A stretch of 52,398 nt of DNA from Candidatus Heimdallarchaeota archaeon (GTDB lineage: Archaea; Asgardarchaeota; Heimdallarchaeia; Hodarchaeales; Hodarchaeaceae). The notes beneath the pieces were generated by a model, which saw only the letters and a list, made by a program, of their open reading frames with translations, did not search any database and had not been told where the DNA came from. Both the position numbers and the translations under genes were made by a program. This document shows positions 19,918-22,765 of this stretch, one piece after another. The stretch lies in NCBI GenBank assembly GCA_020351745.1, contig CP070665.1, positions 910,345-962,742 of the forward strand. The letters run 5' to 3'. Each line of letters opens with the position of its first letter. Within the stretch, counting starts at the first letter, position 1.

Positions 19918-20076
19918 TGCCGAGGGTGCGATTTGAACGCACGACAACTGGATATCCATCACACAGATGAATCTGGGACTTCAGTCCAGCGCTGACGGGA
20001 ACCAATGCCATCATAAGATGGCTATCCTCCCGGGTTTCTCATTTGCTCATGAGAGCAAACTCTAAGCTACCTCGGC
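19918..20076 (-). tRNA. tRNA-Phe(GAA) with three introns (two in the D-arm region, one at 37/38)
   Basis: The reverse complement reads GCCGAGG TA GCTTAG[27 nt]CCCGGGA[34 nt]AGC G CTGGA CTGAAG[25 nt]A TCCAG TTGTC GTGCG TTCAAAT CGCAC CCTCGGC A. Arithmetic: 159-86 = 73 nt mature. The exact D-arm exon borders are ambiguous because short sequences repeat at the junctions. Confidence 0.8.
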
Positions 20077-20162
20077 AGGGGTAAATACGAAGTAATTCGA
20101 TCAATACTAGCAAGTGATTAAAAATTTTTACATATTTATTGGAAGAGAAACTTAGAGTATTA

Positions 20163-20351
20163 TTAATCAATTCGACGACGTTTATTAAAATTTTTTCGTA
20201 CCCATGAATATCGTCGTAATTTGGGGTTTGGATATCCACAGTAGGCGCATTGACGTTTACGTTTATGGTAGGATCGATTTCCACATCTTCGACATTGCAT
20301 ATGAGTCCGTTTAGCGGTGTGTTTTCCGCGTGCTGCAGTTCCTTTTGTCAA
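20163..20351 (-). CDS. rpl37e: 50S ribosomal protein L37e
   Basis: MTKGTAARGKHTAKRTHMQCRRCGNRSYHKRKRQCAYCGY has the conserved MTKGT N-terminus and a C4 zinc ribbon. The initiation codon is TTG (20351..20349). Confidence 0.92.
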   Translation of the reverse strand: MTKGTAARGKHTAKRTHMQCRRCGNRSYHKRKRQCAYCGYPNPKLRRYSWVRKNFNKRRRID

Positions 20352-20823: not shown

Positions 20824-21033
20824 AAAACCTCACGAACTACCGCCTTTATTGGCAATACAACCCCCCTTGCTTCAAATTAAAAAGCTTTGTTAATAAGATG
20901 TCAAATAGCGAAACAAGAGCTTTAAAAGTGAATTAAGAATATTTATCCAGCTATTCGATAAATTAGAAATACTTAATTATTTAAAAAAACCTCTTTCTCT
21001 AATATAGGATCTAATGATAAGGTGTTCAATAGT

Positions 21034-21387
21034 ATGGTCTCTCCACGCAATCGAAAAAGGAGAAGAAGATCTTTGGAACGCCAAGAAATCCAGTTATTAG
21101 CACAAGACGCTGTAAAATTTATAATTGAGGAGAGTTTAAAAATTCGCTTAACAGATCCTCAAAGATCTCAAGAGCTGTTTCGCACAGCCCGAAAAATCGG
21201 AAAAAGAGGACGGTTTCATCTTCCACATAAGTATCGCTTCTTGTTTTGTCGGTCATGTTATTATCCTTTAAGTATTAAAACAGCAAAAATTCGTTTAAAT
21301 AGTAAAAAACAGCAAATTCACTATCTTTGTTTGAACTGTAAGAAAGAACAACGATTTGGTTATTTGTACAGTAGAAAAAAAGAATGA
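21034..21387 (+). CDS. rnp4: RNase P protein component 4 (Rpp21/Rpr2 family)
   Basis: Basic N-terminus, helical region, then a zinc ribbon FCRSCYYPL...LCLNCKKEQRF. The start is set at ATG 21034; the track uses GTG 21022. Confidence 0.8.
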   Translation: MVSPRNRKRRRRSLERQEIQLLAQDAVKFIIEESLKIRLTDPQRSQELFRTARKIGKRGRFHLPHKYRFLFCRSCYYPLSIKTAKIRLNSKKQQIHYLCLNCKKEQRFGYLYSRKKE

Positions 21388-21397
21388 AGGAATAATT

Positions 21398-21724
21398 ATG
21401 TTTGTAGCGATTTATACAACTTTTGACAGCTTGAAGGAAGCAAAGGCCTTTGGTCATCTCTTGATTGAAAAAAAACTGGCAGCGTGTGTAAATTTAATTC
21501 ATGATGTTCATTCAATTTACCGTTGGAAAGGGAAAATCGAAGAGGCAACAGAAATAATCCTATGGTGCAAAACCCAAGATTCCTTGATCGAAGAGATCCA
21601 AGCCATGATCCAAGAGTCTCATCCATATGATCTACCAGCTTTTGTGGTTTATCCGATTCACTCAGGAAGCGAGGCTTATCTAAAATGGATAGCTGAAGAA
21701 ACCCAACCTCTAGACATCAACTGA
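21398..21724 (+). CDS. cutA: divalent-cation tolerance protein CutA
   Basis: MFVAIYTTFDSLKEAKAFGHLLIEKKLAACVNLIHDVHSIYRWKGKIEEATEIILWCKT...HPYDLPAFVVYPI is the canonical CutA1 pattern. The start is set at ATG 21398. Confidence 0.85.
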   Translation: MFVAIYTTFDSLKEAKAFGHLLIEKKLAACVNLIHDVHSIYRWKGKIEEATEIILWCKTQDSLIEEIQAMIQESHPYDLPAFVVYPIHSGSEAYLKWIAEETQPLDIN

Positions 21725-22765
21725 AACCTTAAATCGATTATTAATCTTCTCCGTATGAATTACAACTCCTAATATTTCTTGAATCAACCCAATATTTGTT
21801 TTAGTATGATTTGATAAATAAGAAGTGTAAAAAACACTAGGATTGCATGCTGTTGCCATGATAGGCAAAACTTGGTCTGCTAAAAATGGATCGACAGTAC
21901 TCTGACTGTTTAATGAAACGATATAACGTTCGTAGGCCTTTAGACCAACCTTTTCAGCAGATAACTTACGTTCACCAACAAAATCCCCGCTTAATATGCT
22001 ATTTCCCATTCTTGAGTATATTAATACCCCAGATCCTGGATTATTTGCATTTACATATTCACTTTTGATTTTTGATTCGATATTCTGTTTTAATAAAACG
22101 GATGCGATTGTTTTTGCTTGTCTTTCTGCAACTCGTGCTTTTTGAAGGTGTTTTGAAGCAATTGACAGAGTATTAACCAATTCTGGTCTTTGGAATATAT
22201 CAAGATTCAATCCTTTTGGACAGGAAGGAGACCTCATAATAGCTGAAACCCTTGCTCCTCCCTTCGGATAAAAACCGTGACGATTGATATTTAGTGTAAG
22301 TTCAAAATTCATTTGACGAAAGATTTCCCAAGTTACATGATTTATGTAAGGAATACTAGGTGCCCATTTTCCAAAAGTAGCTCCCCCCTGAAACTCGACT
22401 TTTAGTGTGTGATTCTTAATCCCAAGGATAGCCAGCTGAAGAGACTGTAAAATTAATCCCAAACTACCTGCCGTGGAAACATGAATTTTCAAATGAGATC
22501 TCCATGAATTTGCTGGAGTGAAAGAAATGGTTTTTGATCTAAGATAATCTCCTTCTAATTCACCTCCACAAAAATTAGCTAGTGCACGAACCCCTACAAG
22601 ATGTTGTGTTTGGAGCCCAGGTTTCGGACGATTTTTTCGGATATTCACAATTTTAACAGGTTCTTGTGTTACGAGAGCAAGAGATGTTACTAATCGAAGA
22701 ATAGATCCTCCTCCTTCTCCTAAACTTCCATCATAGACTTGCAAATAGTTACCTCTGATAAACAA
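21710..22765 (-). CDS. rtcA: RNA 3'-terminal phosphate cyclase family protein (Phe at the position of the expected His nucleophile)
   Basis: The N-terminus is DGSLGEGGGSILRL...IRKNRPKPGLQTQHL. The C-terminus is VDPFLADQVLP...SNHTKTNIGLIQEILG. TTG start. In the D-x-H-L-A-D-Q motif the His position is Phe (codon 21884-21886). Confidence 0.85.
   Translation of the reverse strand: MFIRGNYLQVYDGSLGEGGGSILRLVTSLALVTQEPVKIVNIRKNRPKPGLQTQHLVGVRALANFCGGELEGDYLRSKTISFTPANSWRSHLKIHVSTAGSLGLILQSLQLAILGIKNHTLKVEFQGGATFGKWAPSIPYINHVTWEIFRQMNFELTLNINRHGFYPKGGARVSAIMRSPSCPKGLNLDIFQRPELVNTLSIASKHLQKARVAERQAKTIASVLLKQNIESKIKSEYVNANNPGSGVLIYSRMGNSILSGDFVGERKLSAEKVGLKAYERYIVSLNSQSTVDPFLADQVLPIMATACNPSVFYTSYLSNHTKTNIGLIQEILGVVIHTEKINNRFKVSVDV

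Follow-up and report, generated by a model that had tools for sequence, protein, structure and literature searches.

The question raised by this locus is whether 159 nt on the minus strand, at which the standard tRNA annotators report nothing, form a gene for phenylalanine tRNA and, if so, where each of its interruptions begins and ends. The window (the whole stretch of 52,398 nt that was analysed) belongs to a 1.39-Mb contig of 36% G+C, from an assembly rated 71.5% complete, and near-identical DNA is present in sediment and mangrove metagenomes. At the locus itself ARAGORN called no gene, with its intron search on or off, and the Rfam tRNA model (RF00005) did not match the genomic sequence even at E <= 10 in a 600-nt slice. 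Neither program returned a single-intron or intron-free tRNA there, the kind of better fold that an earlier note on this DNA had named as an objection to its own reading, in which three introns, including two in the D arm, interrupt a tRNA-Phe(GAA) gene. Over the whole 1.39-Mb contig, ARAGORN with intron search found only 21 tRNA genes, 12 of them intron-bearing and none for Phe, and therefore the standard tools overlook many of this genome's tRNA genes; most of its tRNA set is invisible to them. The Rfam tRNA count in the window was five. Judged by its sequence and by that of its relatives, the gene is real and conserved, its source is a Hodarchaeales-type Asgard archaeon, and three short introns interrupt it. 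We put at roughly 85% the probability of the reading developed below, by which the locus would be the single tRNA-Phe(GAA) gene, with a precursor of 159 nt (plus leader) that carries three bulge-helix-bulge (BHB) introns and is spliced to 74 nt.

Read from its 5' end at 20076 to the discriminator A at 19918, the complete pre-tRNA-Phe(GAA) gene (window 20076..19918, minus strand, 159 nt) begins GCCGAGG-TA-GCTT-AG and ends GTGCG-TTCAAAT-CGCAC-CCTCGGC-A, with no encoded CCA. Its exons measure 15, 8, 15 and 36 nt. Exon 1 (20062..20076, minus strand; tRNA positions 1-15) comprises GCCGAGG, U8 A9, GCUU and A14 G15, with a mean identity of 96.7% to its orthologs, and is followed at 15/16 by intron 1 (20035..20061, minus strand; pre-tRNA 16-42, 27 nt). 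Exon 2 is a micro-exon of 8 nt, CCCGGGAG (20027..20034, minus strand), which provides positions 16, 17, 17a and 18-22, among them G18 G19 G20 A21 G22; its mean identity to 19 orthologs is 99.3%, and in an intron-free ortholog its letters run unbroken into both flanking exons. Intron 2 (19994..20026, minus strand; pre-tRNA 51-83, 33 nt) lies at 22/23 and splits the 3' strand of the D stem between G22 and A23. Exon 3 (19979..19993, minus strand; positions 23-37) contains the D-stem AGC, G26, CUGGA and C32 U33 G34 A35 A36 G37 at 99.6% identity, and intron 3 (19954..19978, minus strand; pre-tRNA 99-123, 25 nt) occupies the canonical 37/38 site. Exon 4 (19918..19953, minus strand; positions 38-73) holds A38, the 3' strand of the anticodon stem, the variable loop UUGUC, the T arm, the 3' strand of the acceptor and A73; its mean identity is 96.6%, and the 36-mer is 100% identical in three relatives (G009, G015 and G007). 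A T-loop intron, found in some of the orthologs, is absent from the tRNA-Phe of this genome. A split or permuted tRNA gene was rejected, as the four exons are colinear within the 159 nt. The 3' CCA is genome-encoded in tRNA-Phe genes of other families (five loci) and not in this genus.

Once the three introns are removed, the product of 74 nt, starting GCCGAGGUAGCUUAGCCCGGGAGAGCG, has stems of 7, 4, 5 and 5 bp and a 7-nt anticodon loop with GAA; this cloverleaf is essentially its own minimum-energy fold, and ARAGORN calls every spliced version tRNA-Phe(gaa). The acceptor stem is GCCGAGG/CCTCGGC, the T arm GTGCG-TTCAAAT-CGCAC and the D arm GCUU-AGCCCGGGA-GAGC, and the anticodon arm, after 25 nt are taken out, is CTGGA-CTGAAGA-TCCAG, as the earlier note had also read it. 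Direct reading of the product finds G15-C48 and, among the positions whose tertiary and identity roles are established for the tRNA-Phe of yeast and E. coli, U8, A14, G18 G19, G20, A21, G53-C61, U54 U55 C56, G37 and A73. With the Rfam tRNA model, an intron-free ortholog (from genome G024) scores 66 bits and orthologs with the 37/38 intron only score 55-57 bits. Within its own contig the mature sequence matches this locus only, and the same single-locus match is seen in four relatives, including two single-contig assemblies, one of them the complete chromosome CP070695.1. A framework scan of the 1.39-Mb contig (acceptor, T arm and GAA anticodon, with the D region free and a 37/38 intron optional) recovered this gene alone, with the proviso that it would miss a copy carrying a T-loop intron; it was used in place of a permissive regular-expression scan for the GAA anticodon, which had been uninformative.

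The earlier note had held the exact splice sites to be ambiguous; they are no longer so, because orthologs that lack an intron, together with class-wide counts of the uninterrupted junctions, fix them. When the DNA of 40 relatives was searched, most genomes of the genus gave a full-length match, at 74-97% identity, and 21 congeneric orthologs, this gene included, were parsed. Introns at 15/16, 22/23 and 37/38 are found in 11 of them (this gene included), the same three with an additional intron at 59/60, in the T loop, in six, 22/23 with 37/38 in two, 22/23 with 37/38 and 59/60 in one, and 22/23 with 59/60 in one. With two to four introns in five sets, all 21 give a 74-nt product in which D arm, anticodon arm and variable loop are the same, so that the comparison with orthologous tRNA-Phe genes, which the earlier note had proposed, arrives at one cloverleaf of 74 nt. 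Other families of the class have a tRNA-Phe with one intron or none, and the intron-free G024 gene reads GCTT-AGCGGGA-GAGC-G-CTGGA-CTGAAGA-TCCAG, with D and anticodon arms as in the 74-nt product. Four orthologs free of intron 1 (G010, G006, G016 and G001) read GCTT-AG-CCCGGGAG or GCTT-AG-ACCGGGAG, with a 9-nt D loop; intron 3 is absent from the G006 gene and from more distant orthologs, which read CTGAAGATCCAG. The uninterrupted junction of intron 2, GGGAG-AGCGCYGGACTGAAG, has a single occurrence in each of 17 class genomes out of 83 and none in the 22 genus genomes, and is reproduced by removal of pre-tRNA 51-83 only. No other deletion of 27, 33 or 25 nt reproduces the sequence of the orthologs without the intron concerned. 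Of the 83 class genomes 39 contain the 15-mer of exon 3, and within the genus 21 of 22 do, once each except in G012 (three times), and the same 15-mer read backward, as a control, gave one match in total. That the gene is a tRNA-Phe(GAA) whose three introns include two in the D arm is thus borne out by the ARAGORN calls on spliced sequences and by orthologs that, without intron 1, intron 3 or any intron, have the same mature sequence.

The intron at 59/60, with a central helix TTCA/TGAA, is present in the tRNA-Phe of eight congeneric genomes. A central strand TGAA or TGGA is common to these T-loop introns, and the rest differs greatly by subgroup, a divergence that points to gains made separately or else to rapid turnover at the one site. 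For intron 1, an aRF1 tree was consulted on the polarity of gain and loss; the base of the genus was unresolved in it, and therefore no call is made between gain and loss. A search for copies of the introns elsewhere in the genome returned only chance matches of 12-18 nt. Genome G012 has a truncated tRNA-Phe (contig C424, 5188-5317; locus L010) that consists of the first 130 nt with all three introns, passes into unrelated sequence right after the anticodon stem and lacks a T arm. The same short contig contains, about 1.8 kb from it and oriented the other way, a different tRNA-Phe with four introns (L035/L036), which is cut off by the contig end. An integration scar, a split gene or an assembly chimera could each account for this arrangement, and that genome is rated 6% contaminated.

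The BHB geometry applied here places each cut after base 2 of a 3-nt bulge and forms the 4-bp central helix from exon bases 5 to 2 before the 5' cut and intron bases 5 to 2 before the 3' cut. When all pairs of cut sites in the 159 nt were scanned blindly for this geometry, many chance motifs scored equal to or better than the true junctions, and the real pairs 15/42 and 98/123 failed the filter of four central pairs out of four; the junctions were therefore set by comparison of orthologs, and motif scoring was dropped. This outcome agrees with a recent preprint, in which chance relaxed motifs are frequent and D-arm introns are missed by annotators (Goswami et al., 2026, 10.64898/2026.10.13.758758). 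In the motif of intron 1, bases G10-U13 of the D stem's 5' strand (20067-20064) are paired in the central helix with an intronic GAGA at pre-tRNA 37-40 (20040-20037), a stretch that copies the D stem's 3' strand. The central pairs in this genome are C-G, U-A and U-G with a G-A mismatch (three of four), and the fourth pair is G-C or G-U in nine of 17 orthologs, which have four of four. The inner hairpin has 8 bp (20060-20053 with 20048-20041), the TTTGCTC/GAGCAAA hairpin described in the earlier note is confirmed, the bulges are AG|A (A14 G15 | A16) and AA|C, and there is no outer helix.

An improbable alternative is that intron 1 of this genome starts and stops one base further in, at pre-tRNA 17-41 (25 nt), and leaves a 76-nt tRNA with an 11-nt D loop, AGAACCCGGGA. 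In this register, where T36 can pair with A14, the central helix has its strict 4 bp and the 3-nt bulges are GA|G and AA|A; the blind scan ranked the register third (four of four central pairs, 7-bp inner and 1-bp outer helix); its 76-nt product is also still called tRNA-Phe by ARAGORN. However, the pair 14-36 is available in only seven of 17 orthologs, whereas the pair 17-36 of the 16-42 intron is kept in all 17 (GC in 10, GU in five, AU in two), with changes on both sides. The alternative register would also make position 42 part of the mature tRNA, and at this position all four bases (A, T, C and G) occur in orthologs that have otherwise identical exons. Against it stand, further, the 9-nt D loop of the orthologs that lack intron 1 and the minimum-energy fold, which uses the bulge at positions 14-16. 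The evidence thus favors an intron 1 of 27 nt at 15/16, the size that the earlier note had given it.

The selective record of the gene bears on a second alternative, namely that the locus is a decaying tRNA pseudogene, or that its D-arm insertions are retained expansions rather than introns. This view would draw on the silence of the standard tools and on a warning in the Goswami preprint that some D-arm insertions may not be introns. The exons have mean identities of 96.6-99.6% to those of this gene, as against 79%, 63% and 61% for introns 1, 2 and 3, and 60 of 74 exon columns are invariant, compared with 15 of the 85 columns in the introns. In each of the 20 aligned sequences every one of the 21 cloverleaf pairs is kept, six of them with changes on both sides; none of 500 shuffles reached the observed value on any of five measures of covariation, and in controls with the 3' partner slid by 1-3 columns only 35-42% of cells pair. 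Under the model of the precursor, pairing is seen in 92% of cells, and 15 pairs are changed on both sides, again beyond all 500 shuffles. RNAalifold, which was given no model, recovered the acceptor, anticodon and T stems, the intron 1 hairpin from pair 17-36 and the CGGG/CCCG helix of intron 2, and the pre-tRNA of this genome folds at z = -4.3, with none of 200 shuffles folding as well. These comparisons indicate strong purifying selection on the exons and compensatory change in the stems, and this speaks against decay and against expansion alike. A pseudogene is further at odds with a single-copy locus that is the sole GAA-anticodon framework found, and with the conservation of both its synteny and a promoter-like element. 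Were the insertions retained, a D stem would be impossible, with its 3' strand split and G18 G19 locked in a helix. Either form of this alternative is therefore very unlikely.

In the motif of intron 2, the central helix, exon CGGG (C17a-G20; 20032-20029) with intronic CCCG (19999-19996), has four standard pairs in 20 of 20 sequences, three of them invariant and one a G-U in a single sequence. The bulges are AG|G (A21 G22 | G) and UC|A (A23), the flanking helices have 1 bp each, and the GCCAUC/GAUGGC hairpin of 6 bp (20022-20017 with 20012-20007) is present as the earlier note had it (GCCATC/GATGGC). The same note had assigned sizes of 27, 34 and 25 nt to the introns, had set the second at the junction of the D stem with position 26 and had given the mature tRNA 73 nt. 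The first and third sizes stand; by the intron-lacking orthologs the second intron is of 33 nt and lies inside the 3' strand of the D stem, at 22/23, and the mature tRNA therefore has 74 nt rather than 73. The 34-nt version, with a D arm GCUU-AGCCCGGG-AAGC, has in its favor that U13-A22 would be Watson-Crick and that ARAGORN also accepts the 73-nt product. It would, however, take out the invariant G22 and leave the product short of one base of the A21/G22 position pair, and it conflicts with the intron-free and intron-2-free orthologs, which read GGGAGAGCG, as well as with the 4-bp CGGG/CCCG helix, which sets the 5' cut after pre-tRNA G50. We consider it extremely unlikely and retain the 33-nt intron.

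At intron 3 the outer helix is the anticodon stem (5 bp), and the 3' bulge is AU|A (A38). Its central helix in this genome has three of four pairs (C-G, U-G and G-U, with A-A) and is fully Watson-Crick (TCAG) in five orthologs; positions 94/120 and 95/119 vary on one side with pairing kept. The minimum-energy fold for this genome has a different local structure at intron 3. All three motifs are relaxed BHB forms in this gene. A second role for at least one of the introns as a box C/D guide RNA, such as the intron of Haloferax pre-tRNA-Trp has, is hardly credible, for the Rfam match to C/D RNA sR33 (window 19983-20054, minus strand) is weak at 13.6 bits against a gathering score of 37 (E = 3.6), the UGAUGG-like words in introns 2 and 3 are respectively not conserved (in the intron 2 hairpin) and explained by central-helix pairing, and the orthologs show no conserved set of C, D', C' and D boxes whose guide would match a tRNA or rRNA site.

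Upstream of the gene, in an alignment of 19 orthologs, a BRE/TATA-like element, GTAAAAATTTTTAATCAC (20114..20131, minus strand), is nearly invariant between variable flanks. Its centre lies some 45 nt upstream of where the mature tRNA begins; by comparison with the archaeal TATA consensus it may be the promoter, and its position implies a leader of roughly 20 nt. Between this element and the tRNA 5' end, about nine orthologs of the closest group conserve AATTACTTCGTATTTAC (20082-20099, minus strand), above expectation for a leader. An ORF of 81 aa that overlaps the 5' end of the gene (20039..20284, minus strand) was treated as spurious because the frame does not stay open in a 97%-identical relative, and its length ranges from 17 to 128 codons among orthologs. 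In the congeneric genomes the ortholog is syntenic and single-copy, and in most of them it adjoins aRF1. The genes for an RNase P Rpr2/Rpp21 subunit (21022-21387, plus strand) and for RtcA, the RNA 3'-phosphate cyclase (21710-22765, minus strand), lie 1-3 kb from tRNA-Phe, and together with the tRNA genes they form a small cluster of tRNA-processing and tRNA genes.

The genome also encodes candidates for the cleavage step, two paralogs with the EndA domain (PF01974), of 183 and 210 aa. Their two loci are on contig C1, near 1263952-1264206 and 1334924-1335184. The 183-aa protein aligns over its full length, at 1e-42, with the catalytic alpha chain of the alpha/beta enzyme of Aeropyrum pernix (3P1Z_B), and its K39 is aligned with K44 of that chain, a residue that we take to lie in the crenarchaeal-specific loop that broadens the substrate range. 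The 210-aa paralog shows, by eye, no histidine in the segment aligned with the His-containing motif of alpha, and its best matches are EndA-like and structural chains (4FZ2, 5X89 and 3IEY_B). By these alignments the set is a catalytic alpha with a presumptive structural beta paralog. Non-canonical introns are cut only by EndA of the alpha/beta and epsilon types (PMC5829648), and by analogy with that report the substrate range of the present enzyme may well include them. A search for the ligase RtcB on the 1.39-Mb contig, from an assembly that is 71.5% complete, returned none; all four congeneric genomes that were tested have RtcB, at E ~1e-162.

Taken together, the present data allow a model to be drawn of how the tRNA might be made. 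In the precursor the fold would block the D arm: intron 1 would occupy its 5' strand, intron 2 would tie up G18-G20, and its 3' strand is split. EndA (alpha with beta) would cut six times, after the second base of each 3-nt bulge, and RtcB would make three joins, turning exons of 15, 8, 15 and 36 nt into the 74-nt tRNA; only after joining could the D arm GCUU-AGCCCGGGA-GAGC form, and CCA would be added after splicing. The analysis establishes the anatomy of the gene, the junctions fixed by comparison, the conservation, the covariation and the presence of the enzymes, and we infer the cleavages, the ligations and their order. Searches for RNA runs that contain the locus or its surroundings found none. 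The only precursor contacts of the 8-nt exon 2 are those with intron 2. The gene might thus, as a tentative prediction of the model, call for an ordered pathway or for coupled cutting and joining by EndA and RtcB around this exon, because both D-arm motifs cut at once would lose it. In the predicted folds of partly spliced forms each remaining motif persists, and removal of intron 1 gives intron 2 an outer helix of 2 bp, so that intron 1 first is one candidate order. Asgard archaea are often placed closest to the eukaryotes, and ordered or coupled splicing, if true, would then hold in that archaeal group. The five intron sets among the 21 congeneric genomes would, on the same condition, be a natural series for the gain and loss of introns and for the order of their splicing.

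The known workings of archaeal tRNA introns are unchanged by this gene. What is gained is a tRNA gene defined to the base and validated by comparison that standard annotators miss, and but for which the genome would seem to be without tRNA-Phe. Its orthologs form a series of 0 to 4 introns (15/16, 22/23, 37/38 and 59/60) around one mature sequence and would offer substrates for Asgard EndA on relaxed motifs and very short exons. [quoted passage not shown] The present gene resembles them in its multiple BHB introns, including those of the D arm, and in an alpha EndA most similar to the crenarchaeal enzyme of A. pernix. It differs in phylum and in the absence of related intron copies elsewhere in this genome, whereas recurrence in different genes is reported for Thermoproteales.

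Closer parallels exist within the Asgard archaea. In three genomes of Atabeyarchaeia and Freyarchaeia, 92-95% of tRNA genes contain introns, in many cases several and non-canonical ones (Valentin-Alvarado et al., 2024, PMC11291895). tRNAscan-SE misses 30% of such insertions, mostly those of the D arm, and a single gene can have as many as five insertions (Goswami et al., 2026). The same preprint presents, in its Fig. 2a, a tRNA-Phe(GAA) of Atabeyarchaeia-1 with three extra stretches, one of them a 21-nt insertion in the D arm, and reports mostly fewer than one insertion per gene for several lineages of Heimdallarchaeia; Hodarchaeales are unmentioned in it, and a literature search on tRNA introns in Hodarchaeales found nothing. 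Multi-intron Asgard tRNAs, D-arm introns and a tRNA-Phe with three insertions are therefore already published, and this gene adds a lineage in which such a load is less documented. That two introns stand so close together, which the earlier note had called unusual, is overstated for this lineage, since D-arm introns are common in Asgard archaea and up to five insertions per gene are on record (Goswami et al., 2026). Like the genes of Atabeyarchaeia, Freyarchaeia and Jordiarchaeia, the present one has several short insertions at canonical and non-canonical positions, those of the D arm being missed by standard annotators; its genome likewise has two EndA paralogs, and in both cases splicing is predicted from the genes. 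Unlike them, it comes from a Hodarchaeales-type genus of the Heimdallarchaeia, with two D-arm introns 8 nt apart, and heavy interruption of the D arm thereby reaches beyond Atabeyarchaeia and Jordiarchaeia; and, unlike in those cases, its junctions are placed to the exact base through 21 congeneric orthologs that carry five different sets of introns.
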